The translations under genes and the position numbers were made by a program. The notes beneath the pieces were generated by a model that ran no database searches, had not been told where the DNA came from, and was given only the letters and a program-made list of their open reading frames with translations. Positions 11,641-24,295 of a stretch of 32,000 nucleotides of DNA are shown piece by piece (within the stretch, counting starts at the first letter, position 1; every line of letters begins with the position of its first letter). The stretch comes from Candidatus Scalindua sp. (GTDB lineage: Bacteria; Planctomycetota; Brocadiia; Brocadiales; Scalinduaceae), in the NCBI GenBank assembly GCA_031316235.1, contig JALDRA010000001.1, forward strand, positions 3,630,001-3,662,000. The letters are read 5' to 3'.

Positions 11641-13017
11641 CTATAAATAGAGATCTCTTTCACCTTGAATCAGAGATTTTATGCAGTTTGAAGTTATTTT
11701 CCGGACCTCTGGATCTTCAATTTTCTCAAGCTCTGAGGATACGAGATTCTCAGTCTTTCGGGACAACTCTGGCTTGTGATCGAGAAGATATTCCTCGAAA
11801 GTGAGAAGAGCGTTTGGTTGACAGAGTTTTTTGATCTCTCCTGGTTTCGCAAGGCTCATAAAATTCCCGCCGGTTCTACCTGATCGATAACATGAGGTGC
11901 AGAAACTTGGGAGGAATCCCATGGAAGTCAAATCTTCTACCACTTCGGCAAGTGAACGGATGTCAGATATGCTGAACTGCCCTTGAGAATTCCCCTTACC
12001 ACTGTAACTCCCTGGACCGGTCTTTGAACCGGCCGATATCTGTGATACTCCAAGATGGAAGAGCTCATTTCTCAAGGATACCTTCTCCCTTGTTGAAAGG
12101 ATGATGCCCGTATAGGGAACGGCCAGTCTGAGAATCGCAATGATTTTTTTAAGTTCAAGATCTGAAACCCGATAGGGCGGGTGAACAGAAATATTAGAGC
12201 CGAAAGCGGGTTCAAGTCGTGGAATTGAAATAGTATGCGGGCCAACGCCAAATGTTTTCTCAAGGTGAAGTGCATGTAAAAGAAGTGCCAATACCTCGAA
12301 CCTGTAATCATAGAGGCCAAATAACGCCCCGATACCCACATCGTCTATACCGGCTCTTTGAGCATTACTGCAGGCATAAAGCCGCTTTAAATAATCAGAC
12401 TTCGGCCCACCGAGGTGCATGTTATTATACGTGCTCGAATGGTATGTTTCCTGAAATAACTGATAGGTTCCTATACCGGTATGTTTAAGCCTTTTAAAAT
12501 CCTGGATACTCATTGGTGCGACATTAACATTCAATCGCCTTATTGAGCCGTTTCCTGACTTTGTTTCATAGACGGTTTTAATAACTTCTTCTAAGTAATC
12601 GATAGTGACTGCCGGATCTTCTGCTGAAACAAGGAGTAACCGTTTGTGTCCCTGTGAGATGAGGGCCTTCGTTTCTTCCCTCACTTCTTTTGTGCTTAAA
12701 ATCCGCTTGTCACTATTTGAGGTCTCCCGGCTGAAACCACAATAAAGGCAGTTGTTAATACATCTATCTGACAAATAGAGCGGGGCAAATAATACAATGC
12801 GGTTTCCGTAAATTAAATCCTTGATCTGTCTGGCAGTTGTAAAGATCCTGTCTAATAGAATAACATCTTCACAATTAAGAAGGACGGATGCCTCTGCGGG
12901 ACTCAGGCCTTTTAATTGTAAGGACTTATTAATTATAGTCTTAACACTTTGATTGGAAGGACTTTCTGTTTTCTCCAGGATATAAGATATTTTGTCTTCG
13001 TTAATAAAGTTTTTCAT
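11641..13017 (-). CDS. hydG: HydG-type radical SAM tyrosine lyase
   Basis: CINNCLYCGF is the radical SAM CX3CX2C motif, and overall the protein resembles ThiH/HydG. The C-terminal CTSC-x22-C (CX2CX22C) motif separates HydG from ThiH. Confidence 0.8.
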   Translation of the reverse strand: MKNFINEDKISYILEKTESPSNQSVKTIINKSLQLKGLSPAEASVLLNCEDVILLDRIFTTARQIKDLIYGNRIVLFAPLYLSDRCINNCLYCGFSRETSNSDKRILSTKEVREETKALISQGHKRLLLVSAEDPAVTIDYLEEVIKTVYETKSGNGSIRRLNVNVAPMSIQDFKRLKHTGIGTYQLFQETYHSSTYNNMHLGGPKSDYLKRLYACSNAQRAGIDDVGIGALFGLYDYRFEVLALLLHALHLEKTFGVGPHTISIPRLEPAFGSNISVHPPYRVSDLELKKIIAILRLAVPYTGIILSTREKVSLRNELFHLGVSQISAGSKTGPGSYSGKGNSQGQFSISDIRSLAEVVEDLTSMGFLPSFCTSCYRSGRTGGNFMSLAKPGEIKKLCQPNALLTFEEYLLDHKPELSRKTENLVSSELEKIEDPEVRKITSNCIKSLIQGERDLYL

Positions 13018-13134
13018 ACGGGAAACCGGGATAGTCTCTCCTGTGAGCAGCTAATTTTAAATACGAATGAAATAGTATTCCTCCGAACGGACTGTTTTTA
13101 CTCTTCATTACAAAAAAAGTAACAAATTTCATAA

Positions 13135-14430
13135 TTAAATACCCAGGTCCGTAGGGGCCCTTCCAATACTTTTAAGTAATTTCAGCGCATCTTCTATCTG
13201 ATCCTCCACTGATACGTCTACCGTTGCCCTGTTGGGGTAAATATCGTAGAATCCAACATAATCTTTGGGCGTAAGGTTCAGCATTATTGAGTTTGCTCCC
13301 CCCATAAGGGCTTCCCTTCTTGCCTGTGAGTTAAGAGACTCCAGGGCCGTGGTTACAAGGATTTTCCCATACGGATCAATAAGTCTCAAGACAGAAAGGG
13401 CTTTGAGCACATATTCTATATCTGGTGTTTTACCGGCTGAAAGCGGGGTATCAGGATGCGGAATAAATGGACCGAACGAATACATATCACAACCCAGATC
13501 CTTTGCAAACAGAAAGTCATCGATAACGTTTTCAGGACTCTGTCCCGGAAGACCAATGAGACTTCCTGTAGCAATAATGTATCCGATGTTCTTCAAGAGC
13601 CTGATAAACCTGGTCCTCTCTTTAATGGAGGAATGAGGATGTAACGTTGAATATAGATTTTGATCTGACGTCTCAAACCTAAACAGGACACCCTTAGCTC
13701 CTGCATCAAAAGCCTTTTGATAAAAAACCTCTTCCCTTTCTCCCACACTCAGGAAAATAAAAACAGGATAATTTTCCCTTATCTCCTTGATTAGATGTAA
13801 AATATCTTCCGAACGGTAAGTATGGTCTTCACCGGATTGCAAAACGATACCCTTAAATCCGAAACGTTTTACCGCATCCGCAACAACTTCAAGAATCTCT
13901 TCGGTATCAAGACTGAATCTATTGAGGAGAGTGTTCTCCGCGTTTATACCGCAGTATGTACATCGACAGGCACAGATATTTGAGAACTCAATAATTCCAT
14001 GCACACAGCAGGCATTACCTAAAAATTTCTGCCGAATGAAGTTTGCGGCGTTGTGTAATACCGTCACTTCATCAGGATCTTCGCTTAACAGTAATTTCAA
14101 GGCTTCCTGGTCCGTTATTGACCTGCCATATGCCGCCCTGTTGATAATCTTCAGAAACTCCTTATCCACATTAGGCTTGTCATTATACAATCTGGATAAT
14201 CGTCCGTCAATTTTCTTAAGCTCAAAGAACAGCTCCCTCCACGCGTCAAGGATTTCCCCTGCAACCTTTTCATCTATTTTTTGTACAACAAACCCTCCCT
14301 GTGCATAAATATAGTCTCCCACCCGGAGCTCGTAAAAATCGTTTCTTGCCTTCCTCTCTTCTCCAAAATAATCCACTGTAATAAGGTTGCCAGCAATACT
14401 CTTTACGTTTCCGGGAATGGCGTAACACAT
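13135..14430 (-). CDS. hydE: HypC/HupF-like domain fused to a HydE-type radical SAM enzyme
   Basis: Residues 1-75 (MCYAIPGNVKSIAGNLITVDYFGEERKA...RVGDYIYAQGGFVVQKIDEKVAGEILDAW) match the HypC signature (Cys2, PG, VGD-x-V/I...GF). The remainder has IIEFSNICACRCTYCG and KGIVLQSGED, typical of HydE. Confidence 0.8.
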   Translation of the reverse strand: MCYAIPGNVKSIAGNLITVDYFGEERKARNDFYELRVGDYIYAQGGFVVQKIDEKVAGEILDAWRELFFELKKIDGRLSRLYNDKPNVDKEFLKIINRAAYGRSITDQEALKLLLSEDPDEVTVLHNAANFIRQKFLGNACCVHGIIEFSNICACRCTYCGINAENTLLNRFSLDTEEILEVVADAVKRFGFKGIVLQSGEDHTYRSEDILHLIKEIRENYPVFIFLSVGEREEVFYQKAFDAGAKGVLFRFETSDQNLYSTLHPHSSIKERTRFIRLLKNIGYIIATGSLIGLPGQSPENVIDDFLFAKDLGCDMYSFGPFIPHPDTPLSAGKTPDIEYVLKALSVLRLIDPYGKILVTTALESLNSQARREALMGGANSIMLNLTPKDYVGFYDIYPNRATVDVSVEDQIEDALKLLKSIGRAPTDLGI

Positions 14431-14485
14431 ATTTTTGCCTCAATCTGGATGCTACTAAACCACAATAATTAAAACAGATCTTAAT

Positions 14486-14597
14486 GATTTTCGGATAAAA
14501 TCCGAGATAAATCTGAGCGAGTATACCTTCACCAAGATTTGGTTTCCGGTAAAACCGGAAACCAAATCGGTTTTAGTATATTATAGATATTGAATCT
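14486..14597 (+). repeat. double-hairpin intergenic repeat, family A, copy 2
   Basis: Hairpin A is tcggat-aaa-atccga. Hairpin B (14536-14568) has perfect 15-bp arms (gatttggtttccggt / accggaaaccaaatc) and an AAA loop, followed by ggttttagtatat. It lies between the divergent hypC-hydE and thiC genes. Confidence 0.88.
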
Positions 14598-14683
14598 ACC
14601 AGCTTGGCCTGAGATTGTCTAACTTTTTCTAAACTGCAAACATGAGGGTGTATCAAGTAAATCATCATTACAGCAAAAACATT

Positions 14684-14712
14684 TTGACAATTATTGCTTA
14701 TTATCCTAGAAT
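14684..14712 (+). promoter_or_regulatory. near-consensus sigma-70 promoter for thiC
   Basis: TTGACA (14684-14689), a 17-nt spacer, then TAGAAT (14707-14712). It lies about 50 nt upstream of ATG 14765. Confidence 0.5.
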
Positions 14713-14764
14713 TTTACCATATTTTAGCCGTAATTTTACGTTAGTCAAAAAAGGGGAAGACAGA

Positions 14765-16093
14765 ATGAAGACTCAACTCGAAAGGGCAAGGGATGGTGAA
14801 ATAACGCCTCAAATGAGAGAGGCGGCACAATATGATGATGTGAGCCCTGAATTTATCCGTGAGGGTCTTGCGAAAGGTCAGATTGTAATCTATGGTAATC
14901 CGCAAAGAGAGGCACGGGTTGTTGGTATCGGGAAAGGGCTCAGAACAAAGATTAATGCGAGCATTGGGACTTCTCCGGATATAATAGACTTTGATATGGA
15001 AGTTGAAAAGGCGCTGGTTGCTGAAAAAACCGGTGCTGACACGCTGATGGAACTTTCAACGGGGGGTGATTTGGCTGAAGTGAGAAGGAGGGTTCTCGAT
15101 GCTACAAAATTAACGGTAGGAACTGTCCCGCTTTATCAGGCTGCCATAGAAACTATCCGCAAAAAAGGTTCCGTGATTCATATGGAAGCTGACTACCTGT
15201 TTGAAATTATTGAAAAGCAGGCAGCAGAGGGGATCGGCTTTATGGCTATCCATTGCGGTATTAACCTCATCACCTTGGAACGTTTAAAGAGGCAGGGATA
15301 TCGGTTTGGAGGGCTGGTAAGTAGAGGCGGCTCTTTTTTGACAGCATGGATGAACCACAATAAGAGGGAAAATCCCCTCTATGAACAGATCGACAGGCTC
15401 ATTGACATCATGAAGAAATACGATGTTATCTTAAGTCTTGGCAATGGCTTGAGGGCAGGTGCGGTACATGATAGTACCGATCGCGCCCAGATTCAGGAAT
15501 TGATCATTAACTCAGAGGTTGCAGAATATGCCCAGAAGAAGGGGGTACAGATAATTGTGGAAGGGCCCGGACACATCCCTATCGATGAAATAGAAGCAAA
15601 TGTTATCATTCAGAAACGGATGAGTAATAATGCACCGTTTTATATGCTTGGTCCCATCACAACTGATGTCGCACCCGGATATGATCATATTACATCGGCT
15701 ATCGGTGCCGCTTTGTCATCTCGATATGGTGCTGACTTTATCTGCTATGTGACGCCACCGGAACACCTTGCACTTCCGAAACCTGATGATGTAAGGGAGG
15801 GTGTCATTGCGGCCAAGATTGCTGTCCATATTGGTGATATGGTGAAACTTGGTGATAAAGCTAAAAACCGTGACTTAAAGATGGGTATTGCGAGGCGTGA
15901 TCTCGATTGGAAAACACAGTATGAGACTGCTATTACGTCTGAAAAGGCAAAACAGATAAGAGGTGAGAGGCCACCAGCGGATGATGATACCTGCACCATG
16001 TGTGGAAATGTGTGTTCATTAAAGGGTGTGAGAGAATATTACGAAGATGATTTAAATGAAAGCCGGAAGAAATCAGTTTCAACTGCATTGTGA
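14765..16093 (+). CDS. thiC: phosphomethylpyrimidine synthase (short anaerobe-type ThiC)
   Basis: AGGGGAAG RBS upstream of ATG 14765. Strong ThiC resemblance throughout (LMELSTGGD, GTVPLYQA, VEGPGHIP, FYMLGPITTD), plus the C-terminal Cys triad CTMCGNVC. The ORF-track start at 14642 adds an implausible 41-aa extension. Confidence 0.93.
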   Translation: MKTQLERARDGEITPQMREAAQYDDVSPEFIREGLAKGQIVIYGNPQREARVVGIGKGLRTKINASIGTSPDIIDFDMEVEKALVAEKTGADTLMELSTGGDLAEVRRRVLDATKLTVGTVPLYQAAIETIRKKGSVIHMEADYLFEIIEKQAAEGIGFMAIHCGINLITLERLKRQGYRFGGLVSRGGSFLTAWMNHNKRENPLYEQIDRLIDIMKKYDVILSLGNGLRAGAVHDSTDRAQIQELIINSEVAEYAQKKGVQIIVEGPGHIPIDEIEANVIIQKRMSNNAPFYMLGPITTDVAPGYDHITSAIGAALSSRYGADFICYVTPPEHLALPKPDDVREGVIAAKIAVHIGDMVKLGDKAKNRDLKMGIARRDLDWKTQYETAITSEKAKQIRGERPPADDDTCTMCGNVCSLKGVREYYEDDLNESRKKSVSTAL

Positions 16094-16136: not shown

Positions 16137-16619
16137 ATGGATTGGCATGTAACCAAAGGGGCAAAGAACTGCTCACGTTGTGAAAAACTGTTTGAAGAAG
16201 AAGAGGAATATTTCTCTGCACTTTATGACAATGATGCTGAATTTACGAGAAAGGATCTCTGTTTAAGCTGCTGGGATATGAACCGACAGGAAGACTCTTT
16301 TTCTTATTGGAAAACAAAAGTACATAAAAAGGCAGAACCTGTTCGTCAATATGCGAACATAGAGGTGTTTTATGATCTGTTTGTTCGTTCTGAAAATGAA
16401 GATAATGCTTCGAATAAAAACTTTCGATACGTTCTTGCCTTATATTTGGTGAGAAAAAAAGTGTTAACACTGAAATCTATAAGTCGTGAAAATGGCGAAG
16501 AATTTCTGATCCTGCAAAAAAGTAAGGAAGACAAAGAGACTAAGGTCTTTAATCCGAGACTGGATCAGGAAGGGATACTCGCGGTTAAAGAAGAGATTGG
16601 CAAATTGTTAGGGTGTTAA
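16137..16619 (+). CDS. hypothetical protein with N-terminal 4-Cys zinc-ribbon-like motif
   Basis: CSRC...CLSCW pattern near the N-terminus. I recognise no other domain. It starts 43 nt after thiC. Confidence 0.5.
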   Translation: MDWHVTKGAKNCSRCEKLFEEEEEYFSALYDNDAEFTRKDLCLSCWDMNRQEDSFSYWKTKVHKKAEPVRQYANIEVFYDLFVRSENEDNASNKNFRYVLALYLVRKKVLTLKSISRENGEEFLILQKSKEDKETKVFNPRLDQEGILAVKEEIGKLLGC

Positions 16620-16924
16620 CATGATATAAGCTCAAGGAAAACGGGAATTGAATTCTACAGGAATTTGCATGGTAAAGATGATTACATGAATTGGTTACGT
16701 TTTTTTGTGAGATGGTATTCCCGCCTGAACGGGTTATCCGGCTGAGATATTCAGGTCCAAAGAAGGTACATGGTTTTTTTTGGCTGAAGGGATGAATCCG
16801 TTCGGAAATAATTTCTCCTCTCTGCGTGCACCGACGACTGGCAGAAAGCGTGTAACTCTCAGAATGCATAAACAATTATGCTGTTCAAAAAAGCTCCTGA
16901 ACTAAAAGTTACTTTTAAAGAGAT

Positions 16925-18463
16925 ATGTCCATTCTATTGTTGGAGCATCCAAGACCAGAAAATCCTAAAAGGTTTGCCGATGTGGTAAACACCCCTCTCT
17001 CCTCCTGTCTCATGACCGGATTCATTGCATCAGTTCTGAAAACTGAAAATCTTAATACTGAAGTTGTTGATGCAAATCTTCTTGGCTGGTCGTTATCGAA
17101 AACGGTAGAAGAGTTAAAAAGAAGGCATTTCAGGCTTTTGGGAGTTCATCTCATTTACCTGTGGGAGAAAACGGAAGAGGTATTTGAGATGATCTCAGAT
17201 CTGCGTAATGAAGGGATCGACGCACACATAAATCTTTATGGTCATTTTCCGACATTTGCTTATGGAGACATTCTCTTAAACTATCCATTTGTCGATTCTA
17301 TTAGTATCGGTGAACCAGAGTTCACCGTTCTGGAGCTTGCAAAAACGATTGTTACCGGCCGAGGTATACCAAAACTGCACGTAATTGATGGGCTGGCTTT
17401 TCACTCCTCCTCAAACGGAAACAGGAAGGGACAGACAATGAAAGGATCCGGCCTGATTAAGAATCATCGGTCTGATGTACGGCAGAAGACTGGAATTGTA
17501 AAATCAAATCCAAGGTCTGTTGTACCACATCTTGATACTTTTCCCTTTCCTTTCAGGTATAATTTTGAGGTGTTTAAAGAAAAGGGGATTGCTACCTATA
17601 TCCTTGGAAGCCGGGGGTGCTATGGAAAGTGCACATTTTGTTATCTTGACCGGTTTTACGGTGATGATTCTTCGTGGCGTGGGAGGAGTCCGGAAAACGT
17701 GTTTGAGGAGATCTCTGGTATGTATCGAGATTTTGGAGAAACCTATTTTTACTTCGCGGATGCGAACTTTTTCGGACCAGGGAGAAAGGGTAAGGAGCGG
17801 GCAGGTACATTTGCTCGGCTTATTATCGACCAAGGGGTAACCATTCAGTTTGGGATAGAGTGCAGAGTGAACGATATTGAAGCCGATTCACTTAACCTTC
17901 TTGTTGAAGCGGGATTGAAGGATGTATTTCTGGGCGCTGAAAGCGGGAGCCAGAATGTTCTTGACAGACTCAAAAAATTAACGACAGTTGAGGAGAACAA
18001 AAGAGCCATACGCATGCTCAGAGATTACCAAATTGAGCCAAATTATGGATTTATCATGTTTGAACCAGACTCTACTCTCCGTGATGTGAGGGAGAACTTT
18101 GAGTTTCTCAACGAAATGAAAATGTTACGCATACCCAGTGTCACGGCACATCTTCTCTATCATCAACAGACGATATTTAAAGGGATGCCTGATTTTGAGA
18201 CGAGAAAAGATGATGCCGAATCTGTTTCAAAGTTTAATTATGAGTATCGCTATCATCTGAGAGATGAGAGAGTCGCTATCTTGTCTGAAAGCGTAAATAC
18301 CTTTTGTCTTGATATCTTAAGCAGGTTGTCAGATGAGAGAGATGGGGAACATTTGAGTCAGTCATGCAGTTACGGGGAAAAGGATTCACTTTCGCAGGAA
18401 TTGAACCAGGAGCTGATCAACCATTTCGAGAAGATGTTGTCTTCTTTAGAAAAAAATAGCTAG
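16925..18463 (+). CDS. B12-binding (class B) radical SAM enzyme
   Basis: The N-terminal region of about 150 aa looks like a cobalamin-binding Rossmann fold. GCYGKCTFCY is the CX3CX2C motif. FLGAESGSQNVLDRLKK is typical of the radical SAM core. Confidence 0.8.
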   Translation: MSILLLEHPRPENPKRFADVVNTPLSSCLMTGFIASVLKTENLNTEVVDANLLGWSLSKTVEELKRRHFRLLGVHLIYLWEKTEEVFEMISDLRNEGIDAHINLYGHFPTFAYGDILLNYPFVDSISIGEPEFTVLELAKTIVTGRGIPKLHVIDGLAFHSSSNGNRKGQTMKGSGLIKNHRSDVRQKTGIVKSNPRSVVPHLDTFPFPFRYNFEVFKEKGIATYILGSRGCYGKCTFCYLDRFYGDDSSWRGRSPENVFEEISGMYRDFGETYFYFADANFFGPGRKGKERAGTFARLIIDQGVTIQFGIECRVNDIEADSLNLLVEAGLKDVFLGAESGSQNVLDRLKKLTTVEENKRAIRMLRDYQIEPNYGFIMFEPDSTLRDVRENFEFLNEMKMLRIPSVTAHLLYHQQTIFKGMPDFETRKDDAESVSKFNYEYRYHLRDERVAILSESVNTFCLDILSRLSDERDGEHLSQSCSYGEKDSLSQELNQELINHFEKMLSSLEKNS

Positions 18464-18587
18464 TGGTTGATCCAAAACTACCCATCTACTGCGTTGCTGT
18501 AATTATTTCGTAATCCTCACGTACTTGAGTACGCTCCGGTTACGAAATAATTACGCGCCTTGTATCCGGGCAGTTTTGGATCAACCA
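18464..18587. mobile_element. MITE-like element 1 (124 bp)
   Basis: Terminal inverted repeats are 18464-18482 (tggttgatccaaaactacc) and 18569-18587 (reverse complement tggttgatccaaaactgcc), matching at 18 of 19. There is a perfect internal 15-bp inverted repeat at 18499-18513 / 18540-18554. CTAG flanks both sides (18460-18463 and 18588-18591). No coding capacity. Confidence 0.7.
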
Positions 18588-18591
18588 CTAG

Positions 18592-18828
18592 CCCCAGTTT
18601 ACAAGTTATGACGAAAAACTACCAATACGTTTGTGTAACTTTTTTATATCAACAAGTTACAAATGATAGGCTTGTATTACCCTACCAACACATAAAAAGG
18701 AAAAAGGAAAAAACAGCAAACATACGTAACTATATAATTTTCAATGTGTTGCATGATGTTTCTCTAATTCTACAGGTAAGGAAAACTCTTAAAATAAGCT
18801 AAAATAGGCCGTAACTTGTAAACTGGGG
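18592..18828. mobile_element. MITE-like element 2 (237 bp, AT-rich core)
   Basis: Perfect 17-bp terminal inverted repeats ccccagtttacaagtta (18592-18608) and taacttgtaaactgggg (18812-18828). CTAG flanks both sides (18588-18591 and 18829-18832). The 80-aa ORF inside is not credible. Confidence 0.7.
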
Positions 18829-18856
18829 CTAGCGGCTTCGTCCAACACGAGAATTA

Positions 18857-18892
18857 ACTATGACCGAAAGCTGCAAGGCTTTCGGTCATAGT
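18857..18892. other. perfect 15-bp stem, 6-nt loop hairpin
   Basis: actatgaccgaaagc (18857-18871), loop tgcaag, gctttcggtcatagt (18878-18892). No U-tract follows on either strand. Confidence 0.6.
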
Positions 18893-18978
18893 GATTCCCA
18901 CCGTTATTAGGAATTTAACGGTATATTTAATGTAAAGTTTATGTCCAACCGAAGGATACCAGCAATGCAAAATAAACG

Positions 18979-20034
18979 ATGCAAATCCAGCTTTTTAACG
19001 AGTACCTGTGGCAAGAGCTAAATTCTATGACTAATTACGATAATCTTCACTATATTCATGAACTTGGTTATGGTTATTGGAAGTCACAGGTTCTTTTTGT
19101 TGCGGTGGAAATGGACGTGTTTACGCAGATTGGAGTTGGTGGTAAGAGCGGTAAGGATATCGCGAGTGAGCTTGAAACTCACCCCAGGTCAACAGAAATG
19201 CTTCTCAATGTCCTTGTATCACTTGGATTTCTTAAAAAGGTAAAGGGGATTTACAAGAATACGCCTCTTTCCAAACGCTATTTAGTGAAAGGTGAACCTC
19301 TCTATCAAGGTGACAGGATACACCACTTTCACAATTTGTGGGAACCCTGGTCGAGATTGAGCGATGCAGTCAGATCAGGGAAACCTACGGCTTTTGAGGA
19401 TGTTCAGGAGGGGGTAGATGAGCACCGATTAAGAGATTTTCTGAAATCAATGCACAATATGGCCTCGATACAGGTAGAAGAGGTGTGCAGAAAATTAAAG
19501 ATAGATGAGTATAGAAACCTCCTGGATCTTGGAGGAGGTCTGGGGACATATGCCCTAAGGTTTGCAAAGGAAAATTCAGATTTAAGGGCAACGATCTTTG
19601 ATCTTCCTGATGTCATCAAGATAACCGACGAGTATATTAGGGAATCAGGATTGACAGAAAGGGTTACGACGCAGGGAGGAAATTGTCTCAAAGATGGTTT
19701 CGGCAGGGAACGATTTGACATCATTTTCGTGTCAAATCTCTTACATGGTTACAAACCTGCTGAGAATCGAAGCATATTGAAAAAATGTTGGTATTCTTTA
19801 ATGAAAAAGGGTATAGTTGTCATTCAGGAATTTGCCTTAAATACGGGGAAAACAAGCCCTACTTTTGGCACACTGTTTGGTTTGAATATGCTGGTTGGAA
19901 CATTAGGAGGTGCGATGTACTCGGGAGATGAGATAAAAGAGTGGCTTATCAAGGTTGGTTTTAAAAAGATAAAAAAAATTGACATAAACAAAGATTCTCA
20001 TGTAATCATTGGATATAAAATGAATTGTGTTTGA
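18979..20034 (+). CDS. class I SAM-dependent O-methyltransferase with N-terminal winged-helix dimerisation domain
   Basis: LLDLGGGLGTYA is SAM motif I. The overall layout resembles the CrtF/BchU/ASMT-like Methyltransf_2 family. The start is uncertain (ATG 18979 or 19027), and neither has a strong RBS. Confidence 0.78.
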   Translation: MQIQLFNEYLWQELNSMTNYDNLHYIHELGYGYWKSQVLFVAVEMDVFTQIGVGGKSGKDIASELETHPRSTEMLLNVLVSLGFLKKVKGIYKNTPLSKRYLVKGEPLYQGDRIHHFHNLWEPWSRLSDAVRSGKPTAFEDVQEGVDEHRLRDFLKSMHNMASIQVEEVCRKLKIDEYRNLLDLGGGLGTYALRFAKENSDLRATIFDLPDVIKITDEYIRESGLTERVTTQGGNCLKDGFGRERFDIIFVSNLLHGYKPAENRSILKKCWYSLMKKGIVVIQEFALNTGKTSPTFGTLFGLNMLVGTLGGAMYSGDEIKEWLIKVGFKKIKKIDINKDSHVIIGYKMNCV

Positions 20035-21012: not shown

Positions 21013-21099
21013 GCCAGAGTGGTGGAATTGGCAGACGCGCCGGACTCAAAATCCGGTCCCCGCAAGGGGGTGTGGGTTCGATTCCCACCTCTGGCACCA
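21013..21099 (+). tRNA. tRNA-Leu (anticodon CAA), class II with long variable arm, CCA encoded
   Basis: Acceptor stem GCCAGAG / CTCTGGC. D arm GGTGGAATTGGCAGACGC. Anticodon stem CCGGA / TCCGG with loop CTCAAAA. Variable arm CCCCGCAAGGGGG. T arm GTGGGTTCGATTCCCAC. Ends in ACCA. Confidence 0.92.
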
Positions 21100-22063: not shown

Positions 22064-24295
22064 TTACTGTTTCACGAAAAACGGTTGAAATTTTTCATAT
22101 AAGGTGAGGAGTTTCTTTTTATAGTATTCTACGTTTTCATCAGGCTCTTTTTCACTCCACTGTGAGGCAAGCTTACAGTTATCAAATACCCTGACTCTGC
22201 TTTTAGTCCCGGTCACATAGAAAGAGACCTGGTCACCGGGTTGGTAATTGCGTTTTGATTGAATGGCCAATTGATATGATGCTGATGCGGTCCGCCTCTT
22301 TTTCCTTACTTTTTCAGAGTAGACGGGGAGAGAATCCTGCAGTGTTTCGGTTTTAAGAAACATTTTCTTGTCCCATTTATGATTGGTAAGTTCATGGATA
22401 TATTTCTGCAGGAGCTCTTCAACCTCTTTCTCTTTATCAGTAAGTATGAGATAAAACATCTCTTCCATGAATTTTCTCTGAAAAAGTTCCAGCCCCCTCG
22501 AACGCAGGCCTGATCCTTTAATAATCATATGATTCTCGTAATCAAGAAGTACATAATTTTTGATCTTGTAGCTGAACATTGCTTTGTACCTGCCTGCAAG
22601 CTCAAGGTTGATTCCCGCTGGCAGTGTGCTTGATAATTTCTGGATTAACTTCTCCTCATCCTCATGTGTTATGATATCTGATGGTGGCACAAAATAGATA
22701 CCGTCCGTGTCTATTTCAATTACCGTGCAGTCGTTCTCCCCAAGCCAGGAAACCATAGACCTGATGATGTCTCTTCCCTTTGCCGCTACATTGTCTGCCA
22801 CATCAAAATCACCAAAATGTCCATAGGAAAATCCAAGATACCCGTAAAAGGAATTAATAAGTATCTTGAATGTCGATTGAAGGGCATCAAAATAGATCTT
22901 CTCCGCCTTCGTTTCTGCAATGGCAGCCATCTGTTTCGCCTTCAAACGGAAATCTTTCAGATCTTCCAGTAACGATTTGAATATGTGCAGGACATCTTTT
23001 TCCGGCAGATAATTGAACGTCAGGATGATGGAAGGGTACAACGATTGAATATCGCAATAGAGTATCCTTTTAACGACACCTTGATAAAAAATATCAGTAT
23101 ATCCACCAGAATATTCTTTTGATTTGGGTAGATGCGGGATCGAGTGGTTTGCATTGATATACTCTCGTATAAGAAGCGAATCAATCTTGGTTGCATTACC
23201 TCGTATTATGATATTCTGAAAAGAATAGGGAAAGATCTGCGCCTGATAAAAAAAACTTTGGCTCAAGATCTCGCTGATAGCCCGAGTCTCTCTTACATCG
23301 TCAAGTGCATATTTCAAAAGTTCCTGATGGTTATGGTGGAAATACCAATTTATCTTTTCAGGTTTTATGTAGGTCCTTTCAGGAGGAGCAACGTTAAAAT
23401 GACTTGCTATAACCTTTAACCCGTAACTTTCCAGGTTCCGTGTGGTAACATCATACATCTGCGCGAGTAAATAGGTGTCAACAATATGGCGGCCATACAC
23501 TTCAAATTTTCTGTAGACAATTGTTCGTTCAGCAATATTGAGGCGAGATTGATGTGATTTCAAGAGTTTCCCGCCACGTCCAATTGTTAAAGGTACTTTG
23601 TGCCTTTTTGCACGTATCTCTATATAATTCAAATCAAAATTAAAGATGTTGTGGCCTTCAATTATGTCTGGATCTCTTGCATGTATCTGTTCTATCATGA
23701 GAGTAATCATCTCTTTCTCATCCAATTCTCTTCCTGAGATAGTATATTCCCACCCGCTGCTGTCAGAAAGTGTGATCACGATAATTCTATCTGCTTCTCT
23801 TTCGGGATTCGAGAAATCATATCCCTCTTCACAGTAAGTTTCAATATCAAGTTGAAGTCTCACAAGTTGATGAAAAGACATTCCCTTGAAAAGTGTTTGT
23901 CCGGTAACGAGAAGATATTGAAGAACAGGATCATTCAAATAATAATAGGGTGCATTAAAGCTCGATGATGTTGTACCGGTAGTTGTTTTTAAGTACTGTA
24001 ATAACCTTTGCAGATCTGTCCAGTTATCCAGGAATACCAGATATTGATAATATTCCTCCCCCTGGAGCTTTTTTGTATCATGCATATGGGGCCATCTGTC
24101 GAGCAATAGTCTCTCTTTTAGGAAGAGAAATGGCTTGAATGATGTAACCTTGGATGTTACTTTTCCTTCTGATCGAAAAAATATCTCCATACCCTTATTG
24201 CCATCGAATTCTACAGCCGTGATACACGGTGTGGGATTTCTGCCAAAAAGGATTTCATTTTCGTGAAAGGAAACCTTTTGAAACTTCATATCCAT
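22064..24295 (-). CDS. polB: family B DNA polymerase (Pol II-like, with 3'-5' exonuclease domain)
   Basis: Exo I is LDIETY, Exo II is GHNIFNFDLNYI, Exo III is YALDDVRET. Pol motif A is CDIQSLYPSII, motif B is KILINSFYGYLG, and motif C is IEIDTDGIYF. A thumb-like C-terminus is present. Confidence 0.9.
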   Translation of the reverse strand: MDMKFQKVSFHENEILFGRNPTPCITAVEFDGNKGMEIFFRSEGKVTSKVTSFKPFLFLKERLLLDRWPHMHDTKKLQGEEYYQYLVFLDNWTDLQRLLQYLKTTTGTTSSSFNAPYYYLNDPVLQYLLVTGQTLFKGMSFHQLVRLQLDIETYCEEGYDFSNPEREADRIIVITLSDSSGWEYTISGRELDEKEMITLMIEQIHARDPDIIEGHNIFNFDLNYIEIRAKRHKVPLTIGRGGKLLKSHQSRLNIAERTIVYRKFEVYGRHIVDTYLLAQMYDVTTRNLESYGLKVIASHFNVAPPERTYIKPEKINWYFHHNHQELLKYALDDVRETRAISEILSQSFFYQAQIFPYSFQNIIIRGNATKIDSLLIREYINANHSIPHLPKSKEYSGGYTDIFYQGVVKRILYCDIQSLYPSIILTFNYLPEKDVLHIFKSLLEDLKDFRLKAKQMAAIAETKAEKIYFDALQSTFKILINSFYGYLGFSYGHFGDFDVADNVAAKGRDIIRSMVSWLGENDCTVIEIDTDGIYFVPPSDIITHEDEEKLIQKLSSTLPAGINLELAGRYKAMFSYKIKNYVLLDYENHMIIKGSGLRSRGLELFQRKFMEEMFYLILTDKEKEVEELLQKYIHELTNHKWDKKMFLKTETLQDSLPVYSEKVRKKRRTASASYQLAIQSKRNYQPGDQVSFYVTGTKSRVRVFDNCKLASQWSEKEPDENVEYYKKKLLTLYEKFQPFFVKQ

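Follow-up and report, generated by a model that had tools for sequence, protein, structure and literature searches.

A HypC–HydE-type fusion protein and its HydG partner in Candidatus Scalindua: a candidate radical-SAM module for [NiFe]-hydrogenase maturation

Introduction

The maturation of [NiFe]-hydrogenases is taught as strictly dependent on HypA to HypF, among which HypC acts as the [NiFe]-specific chaperone, while under oxic conditions HypX synthesizes the carbon monoxide (CO) ligand of these enzymes from N10-formyl-tetrahydrofolate. In the [FeFe] system, the known product of the maturase HydG is Fe(CO)2(CN), whereas the [NiFe] site needs Fe(CO)(CN)2. In this study, a gene pair encoding a fusion of a HypC domain to a HydE-like radical S-adenosylmethionine (SAM) enzyme, together with a HydG, was analyzed in a 32,000-nt stretch of Candidatus Scalindua sp. 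(contig JALDRA010000001.1, positions 3,630,001 to 3,662,000), hereafter referred to as the window. Based on the genes that accompany this pair in other genomes, we lean toward the view that the module matures a [NiFe]-hydrogenase, and that [FeFe]-hydrogenase is not, or not only, its client.

In a 2025 review of how the [NiFe] cofactor is made, HypA-F and HypX are the only factors listed, radical-SAM enzymes and HydG are not mentioned, and the anaerobic origin of the CO ligand is named as the most pressing open question of the field (PMC12134894). The full-text literature searched, outside which most subscription papers lie, yielded no account of a HypC-HydE fusion or of a role of HydG in [NiFe] maturation.

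Results

Identity of the two genes

The pair comprises two minus-strand open reading frames (ORFs) of the same orientation in the ORF list of the window (Table 1), and is separated by 117 nt as opposed to the 4-nt overlap of the fusion and hydG genes found in most relatives. The 458-aa product of the downstream gene scored 502 bits against the NCBIfam HydG model (TIGR03955, cutoff 312.15), whereas its score against the ThiH model (TIGR02351), 292 bits, was below the cutoff of 380. It was aligned end to end with HydG from T. italicus (4WCX) at 514 bits (E = 2.5e-153, phmmer), and a MAFFT alignment gave 52.5% identity to the solved HydG. Although the tyrosine-lyase radical-SAM core is common to HydG and ThiH, the C-terminal CX2CX22C domain that ThiH lacks was present in this protein (as CTSC-X22-C), along with the CX3CX2C motif (as CINNCLYC). 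In a neighbor-joining (NJ) tree, two solved canonical HydGs interleaved with the fusion partners. The assignment of this gene to HydG rather than ThiH, made in a preliminary description of the locus, was upheld. A separate HydG clade for the fusion partners was also considered and was dropped, because canonical HydGs from the Protein Data Bank (PDB) were mixed among the partners in the same tree. A second class of HydG partner, approximately 498 aa long, carries an N-terminal extension and a shifted motif, CTAGYRCGRTG...C, in place of CX2CX22C; it is found beside the fusion, often after Rex (e.g., L072:7271-8767 and L058:11968-13467), and also in the canonical HydFGE cluster of locus L077 (L numbers denote loci and P numbers proteins throughout).

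As for the upstream gene, residues 1-64 of its product matched Pfam HupF_HypC at 50.6 bits (cutoff 28.5), and Radical_SAM and BATS were matched as well. The N-terminal Met-Cys of HypC proteins was present, and an alignment with E. coli HypC placed the essential Cys2 in register, while the score on the NCBIfam HypC model TIGR00074 was 43, below its cutoff of 48. A confident two-domain model was obtained with AlphaFold2 (AF2; pLDDT 93.3, pTM 0.92), in which the HypC domain is made up of five strands followed by a helix spanning residues 54-78; among PDB entries, the N-terminus was matched by the HypC structures 2z1c and 3vyr. The radical-SAM domain was aligned with T. maritima HydE (TmHydE) at 224 bits (phmmer), and a Foldseek search with the AF2 model superposed the barrel on TmHydE with a TM-score of 0.92, a root-mean-square deviation of 1.6 Å, and 36-37% identity, as well as on the TmHydE entries with complex B bound. 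The earlier reading of this gene as a genuine HypC-HydE-type fusion is supported.

Nevertheless, the fusion passed the NCBIfam HydE model (TIGR03956) only borderline, at 260.1 bits for a cutoff of 254.6, against the 359.6 bits of the canonical 366-aa HydE encoded in L077; its assignment to HydE is accordingly less secure than that of its partner to HydG. In an alignment of 25 family members, the N-terminal MCYAIPG and the sequence YAQGG were invariant, as was the C-terminal tail GRAPTDLG (25/25). Directly in front of the radical-SAM CX3CX2C motif stands a CC-x-H motif, in which C142 and H144 never vary and C141 is at least 90% conserved, and which occurs neither in TmHydE nor in the canonical HydE of L077. 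These three residues could constitute an extra metal-ligand site. Unlike canonical HydE, the fusion has a HypC domain, the CC-x-H motif, and the invariant tail, and is without the HydE auxiliary-cluster cysteines; nor is it a stand-alone protein of about 350 aa, and in L077 it occurs together with a canonical HydE and HydF. Judged from its sequence, the fused protein is a distinct, tightly conserved subfamily and not a canonical HydE.

Distribution and gene neighborhood of the fusion family

A scan with a single genome for each species detected the fusion in at least 386 species genomes from approximately ten phyla, members of the Candidate Phyla Radiation (CPR) and DPANN included. In a protein search, the 431-aa fusion of the window was matched exactly by a protein of a Candidatus Scalindua sp. 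MAG (anammox Planctomycetota), and fusions of the same architecture were identified, at about 50% identity, in Scalindua, Brocadiaceae, Omnitrophota, Margulisiibacteriota, Nitrospirota, Aenigmatarchaeota, and Altiarchaeota. For the analysis of neighborhoods, ORFs were called and clustered in 88 loci, and representative clusters were confirmed by NCBIfam and Pfam. Some of the loci from metagenome-assembled genomes (MAGs) are possibly mis-binned, such as L011, which is labeled Thermodesulfobacteriota but is Scalindua-like.

The order that recurred in these loci was [NiFe]-hydrogenase subunits, a HycI-type protease, an 80-aa HypA, the fusion, often Rex, and HydG. A [NiFe] large subunit was encoded in the flank in 45 of the 79 loci, and the maturation protease lay one to two genes upstream of the fusion on the same strand in 38/79. 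When structural and maturation genes of [NiFe]-hydrogenase were counted together, the flanks of 54 out of 83 loci contained at least one, which in 43 was at most three genes away from the fusion. The preliminary description had called the pair apparently orphan, a status that is not supported as such for a conserved family standing beside [NiFe]-hydrogenase genes in these 54 loci. The linked hydrogenases belonged to group 3b (HyhBGSL), group 3c (HdrCBA-MvhDGA, in Scalindua L018 and L020), and group 4 (Mrp/Mbh-like and formate-hydrogenlyase-like), and the hosts of the linked loci were Omnitrophota, Planctomycetia, Brevinematales, Saganbacteria/WOR-1, one CPR Falkowbacteria, one Nanoarchaeota, and Scalindua. 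In Scalindua L020, for example, the order was HdrCBA-MvhD-MvhG-MvhA-protease-HypA-fusion-HydG, with a 15-nt gap, and in Spirochaetota L038 it was HypA-HypB-fusion.

HydG adjoined the fusion in 25 loci and was one gene off, usually across Rex, in 12. Furthermore, in the Nitrospirota protein P0089, which is encoded on a 2.4-kb contig and truncated where the contig stops, HypC and the HydE-like domain are joined to HydG through a linker of about 50 aa; because all three are fused there, the two genes of the window are considered to be functionally tied.

Several further features of these neighborhoods were observed. In 25 loci (e.g., L020:9743-9985 and L032:4273-4515), the HypA encoded beside the fusion has a length of just 80 aa, with the N-terminal MHE nickel-binding domain kept and the zinc-finger half of normal HypA missing, and HypB was found in no flank except that of L038. 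In three Scalindua loci, L012 (8520-9722), L022, and L042, the fusion has a divergently oriented neighbor encoding an S-adenosylmethionine synthetase of archaeal type (PF01941, 548 bits), which fits a local SAM supply for the two radical-SAM enzymes; in L042, whose fusion ORF is broken, the synthetase lies a few genes away. As for the archaeal loci (Aenigmatarchaeota and Altiarchaeota), a conserved neighborhood was looked for and rejected, since only the pair itself is kept.

Hyp and Hyd maturation genes at the fusion loci

HypD, HypE, and HypF of E. coli and Chloroflexi, used as tblastn queries, had no match in the fusion loci, which amount to 1.43 Mb. As a positive control, the same queries matched a Chloroflexi locus (L092) at E values from 1e-90 to 1e-128. 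This locus has a fusion-less 3b operon followed by HypF-HypA-HypC-HypD-HypB-HypE, and the position held there by the hyp genes is occupied by the fusion and HydG in the fusion loci. The module joins the enzyme that converts tyrosine to CO and cyanide (CN) in the [FeFe] system with the iron chaperone of the [NiFe] system, at the place where hypCDEF normally sit.

With respect to the [FeFe] maturases, no complete HydF was found in the same 1.43 Mb; the only trace was a fragment (277 bits) in Omnitrophota L077, where it is accompanied by HydG and the canonical 366-aa HydE (L077:2-3424). A few genes on, the same locus contains a 3b [NiFe] operon, a protease, HypA, and the fusion (L077:4264-10268), so that both maturase types lie within 10 kb. 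Because a canonical HydE is present besides it, the fusion in this genome is a separate paralogue and not its HydE, and for the same reason the discovery of hydF or hydA elsewhere in a genome would not alone make a fusion ordinary.

In six loci (L032, L043, L060, L062, L066, and L071), an A6-type NADH-dependent [FeFe]-hydrogenase is encoded between the fusion and HydG, in an operon that also specifies a NuoF-GltD fusion and a subunit resembling NuoE. This operon is inserted between fusion-Rex-kinase and HydG, and the [NiFe] and [FeFe] operons and both maturase genes form one block.

The window and its genome

When the large ORFs of the 32-kb window were all scanned with Pfam, no HydA, HydF, or Hyp gene and no hydrogenase was identified, in line with the earlier remark that neither HydF nor HydA is nearby. 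The genome does, however, encode a [NiFe]-hydrogenase: a 3b large subunit (P0275), 83% identical to the Scalindua 3b query, is located on the same contig (4,149,782 bp) as the window, and both its locus and the window genes were found in the same two sequencing runs. The locus is ordered HyhB-HyhG-HyhS-HyhL-HycI, and behind HycI come a response regulator and a kinase. Scalindua L012 has the same arrangement, and there the fusion sits 4 kb further on. No hyp genes were present in the examined flank of the P0275 operon, and the top matches listed included no Mvh-type (3c) large subunit on this contig. A plausible client is thus encoded in the genome of the pair, whose lone position in the window looks like a rearrangement. 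The preliminary description had proposed an undescribed metallocofactor client; comparative genomics, together with this 3b hydrogenase and its protease, points instead to a described one, the [NiFe]-hydrogenase large subunit. What is undescribed appears to be the pathway and not the cofactor.

Table 1. Features of the gene pair and its surroundings (window coordinates)
Feature	Position	Strand	Basis
HypC-domain/HydE-like radical-SAM fusion gene, 431 aa	13135..14430	-	ORF; Pfam HupF_HypC, Radical_SAM, and BATS; NCBIfam HydE
HypC-like OB-fold domain and helix, residues 1-78	14197..14430	-	alignments, AF2 secondary structure, PDB HypC matches
HydE-like radical-SAM TIM-barrel, residues ~96-431, ending in GRAPTDLG	13135..14145	-	phmmer, Foldseek, alignment
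CCVH motif of the fusion (C141, C142, H144)	13999..14010	-	alignment
Radical-SAM cluster motif CACRCTYC of the fusion (C153, C157, C160)	13951..13974	-	alignment
Intergenic gap between fusion and hydG, 117 nt	13018..13134	-	terminator search; none found on the minus strand
hydG, 458-aa radical-SAM tyrosine lyase of HydG type	11641..13017	-	NCBIfam HydG, 4WCX match, NJ tree
HydG radical-SAM motif CINNCLYC, residues 86-93	12739..12762	-	motif reading
HydG auxiliary-cluster motif CTSC-X22-C, residues 373-399	11821..11901	-	aligns to CTACYR...C of both solved HydG structures
Divergent intergenic region between fusion and thiC	14431..14641	.	palindrome and promoter-like hexamers

The promoter of the pair probably sits in the divergent region between the fusion gene and thiC. 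This region also contains a perfect palindrome with 15-bp arms, GATTTGGTTTCCGGT AAA ACCGGAAACCAAATC (14536-14568), which may serve as an operator or form a terminator-like hairpin acting in both directions. The thiC ORF itself spans 14642-16093; since its Pfam match begins only at residue 44, translation probably begins at the Met at ~14765.

The other window genes, as assigned by Pfam, were three Usp, UDG, STAS-PilZ, HAD, Wza-like, GlmU-like, GlmM, LolA, ThiC, a B12-type radical-SAM enzyme, an O-methyltransferase, PpiC, PolB, an M20 peptidase, FloA/NfeD, and a histidine kinase. Downstream of thiC, positions 16137-20034 encode a Cys-rich 160-aa protein without a family match, the B12-type radical-SAM enzyme (512 aa), whose best match, BchE, is far under its cutoff, and the O-methyltransferase. 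The family-B DNA polymerase (743 aa, 22064-24295, minus strand) adjoins a tRNA gene (21013-21096, plus strand) and may represent either a repair polymerase of Pol II type or what is left of a mobile element.

Discussion

Comparison with described systems

The module shares with the HypC-D-E-F machinery an oligonucleotide/oligosaccharide-binding (OB) domain of HypC type with the essential N-terminal Cys, and an operon position after the large subunit, protease, and HypA, as hypC/D/E/F have it in control L092. It departs from that machinery in that HypC is fused to a radical-SAM enzyme and that the 1.43 Mb of loci contain no gene for the HypD scaffold or for cyanide synthesis by HypE/HypF; moreover, the presumed ligand source is tyrosine via HydG and not carbamoyl phosphate. 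With the HydE/F/G system it has in common a HydG with all motifs, a barrel with the HydE fold, and the adjacency of the genes seen in many hyd clusters, whereas HydF and HydA are missing from the window and from nearly all related loci, the neighbors being [NiFe]-hydrogenase genes. Like HypX, the module would be an accessory route that gives CO to HypC-bound iron; unlike HypX, it belongs to an unrelated protein family with unrelated chemistry, and occurs in strict anaerobes with oxygen-sensitive radical-SAM enzymes. HmdB/HcgA of the iron-guanylylpyridinol (FeGP) cofactor offers a further likeness, namely a BioB/HydE-like radical-SAM enzyme serving an Fe-carbonyl cofactor, but the score of the fusion on the HmdB model was only 68.7 bits against a cutoff of 320.9, the surroundings are free of hmd and hcg genes, and the hosts are not methanogens.

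Proposed mechanism

Considering the conserved motifs and the established chemistry of HydG, we propose that HydG would cleave tyrosine by radical-SAM chemistry and build an Fe-carbonyl-cyanide unit on its auxiliary cluster. The HydE-like barrel would take over this organometallic unit, as HydE takes complex B from HydG, and strip or remodel its cysteine ligand, whereupon the fused HypC domain might capture the resulting Fe(CO)x(CN)y in cis via the invariant Cys2. Such a carrier role for the HypC domain, which was suggested earlier from the sequence of this locus, thus seems plausible. More speculatively, C141, C142, and H144 may replace the ligands that HypD Cys41 and HypC His51 provide in the canonical scaffold. 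To judge from the gene order, the HypC domain would then dock on the apo large subunit and hand over the iron unit, after which the minimal HypA would insert Ni and the HycI-type protease would trim the C-terminus. In the present Scalindua, the module would have been split by rearrangement from the group 3b operon elsewhere on the contig. Such a module would replace, or at least supplement, HypC/D/E/F and would also supply the CO ligand. Its fullest form, in which a HydG-dependent radical-SAM route builds Fe(CO)(CN)2 on the fused HypC with both CO and CN derived from tyrosine and HypD/E/F bypassed, is put forward as a tentative possibility, less probable than the [NiFe] client itself.

Evaluation of the [NiFe] assignment and its alternatives

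Several points weigh against a [NiFe]-hydrogenase client. The argument for it is purely comparative, and the locus counts behind it are not phylogenetically independent because many come from related Omnitrophota MAGs. About one third of the loci, including the window and those of Aenigmatarchaeota and Altiarchaeota, have no hydrogenase nearby, and in the six loci described above an [FeFe]-hydrogenase is encoded between the fusion and HydG. At the protein level, His51 matters for HypC function in E. coli, and its position is held by an invariant Gln44, that of YAQGG, throughout the fusion family. An extra ligand-exchange step would also be needed, because the product of HydG has the wrong CO:CN ratio. 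As for the missing hyp genes, a second control 3b operon, from Actinobacteria, was likewise without nearby hyp genes (one of two controls), and the local absence of HypD/E/F alone is therefore not proof; the searches covered the loci, and hypD/E/F, hydF, and hydA may sit elsewhere, in this genome as well.

The main rival, ordinary or HydF-less [FeFe] maturation, is regarded as unlikely. It supposes that the maturation system is split, with hydF and hydA located elsewhere, and that the HypC domain is an accessory or a substitute for HydF in handling the [2Fe] subcluster. It draws on the facts that hyd maturase genes are often scattered, that both proteins pass their NCBIfam HydE and HydG cutoffs, that the HydG is indistinguishable from canonical HydGs, that the barrel superposes on TmHydE in its complex-B-bound forms too, and that the A6 enzyme is encoded within the block in six loci. 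These six, however, stand against 38-43 loci in which the fusion follows a [NiFe] large subunit, protease, and HypA. In addition, L077 possesses canonical HydE, HydF, and HydG besides the fusion, and its HydF fragment is the only one in 1.43 Mb, while we know of no role of HypC in H-cluster assembly. On the side of this rival there is also a 2024 survey, according to which most archaea with [FeFe]-hydrogenases are without a full HydEFG set (PMC11216029).

The same [NiFe] neighborhoods would equally be expected if the pair supplied CO alone, with HydG-derived CO on iron being fed to canonical HypCDEF encoded elsewhere, as an anaerobic counterpart of HypX. The unsettled anaerobic source of CO (PMC12134894) is in favor of such a function, and so is L038, in which HypB and a full HypA beside the fusion demonstrate that some canonical Hyp parts coexist with it. 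Yet HypD/E/F occurred in no flank, although the control shows them to be frequently located behind the protease; a HypC domain is already built into the fusion, and the module is also present in the tiny genomes of CPR and DPANN members. We consider this explanation about as improbable as the [FeFe] one. Far less credible still is a role in thiamine synthesis or sulfur relay, in which the 458-aa protein would be a ThiH-like 2-iminoacetate synthase or the pair would take part in sulfur trafficking. This idea is prompted by thiC, 211 nt upstream on the opposite strand, by ThiH being the closest non-HydG family, and by Altiarchaeota L005 (7086-14610), where the pair lies amid ThiF, ThiS, ThiI, a cysteine-desulfurase-like aminotransferase, a DsbA/thioredoxin gene, and a rhodanese. 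No other locus had a sulfur-relay setting of this kind. The thiamine link was rejected: neither a thiamine pyrophosphate (TPP) riboswitch nor any other Rfam match was detected upstream of thiC (14431..14641), a gene commonly under riboswitch control; the adjacency to thiC recurs in no other Scalindua locus; and the ThiH score is below its cutoff while the HydG score is well above its own, with the HydG C-terminal auxiliary-cluster domain complete.

Significance

On balance, the sequences suggest a variant of known maturation machinery with a specific, testable function in [NiFe]-hydrogenase maturation, and the module is a concrete and testable candidate for the missing CO chemistry in at least some anaerobes. 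Since automated annotation labels the pair as [FeFe] maturases, it may also lead to false calls of [FeFe]-hydrogenase metabolism in MAGs. If the proposed function is true, the protease, mini-HypA, fusion, and HydG would make up a compact gene set for heterologous hydrogenase production, and the two hydrogenase maturation systems would be linked in evolution. The module could then explain how [NiFe]-hydrogenases are matured in the very small genomes of CPR and DPANN. Should the bypass of HypD/E/F hold as well, it would represent a third, minimal [NiFe] maturation system distributed among anammox bacteria, Omnitrophota, Margulisiibacteriota, CPR, and DPANN.

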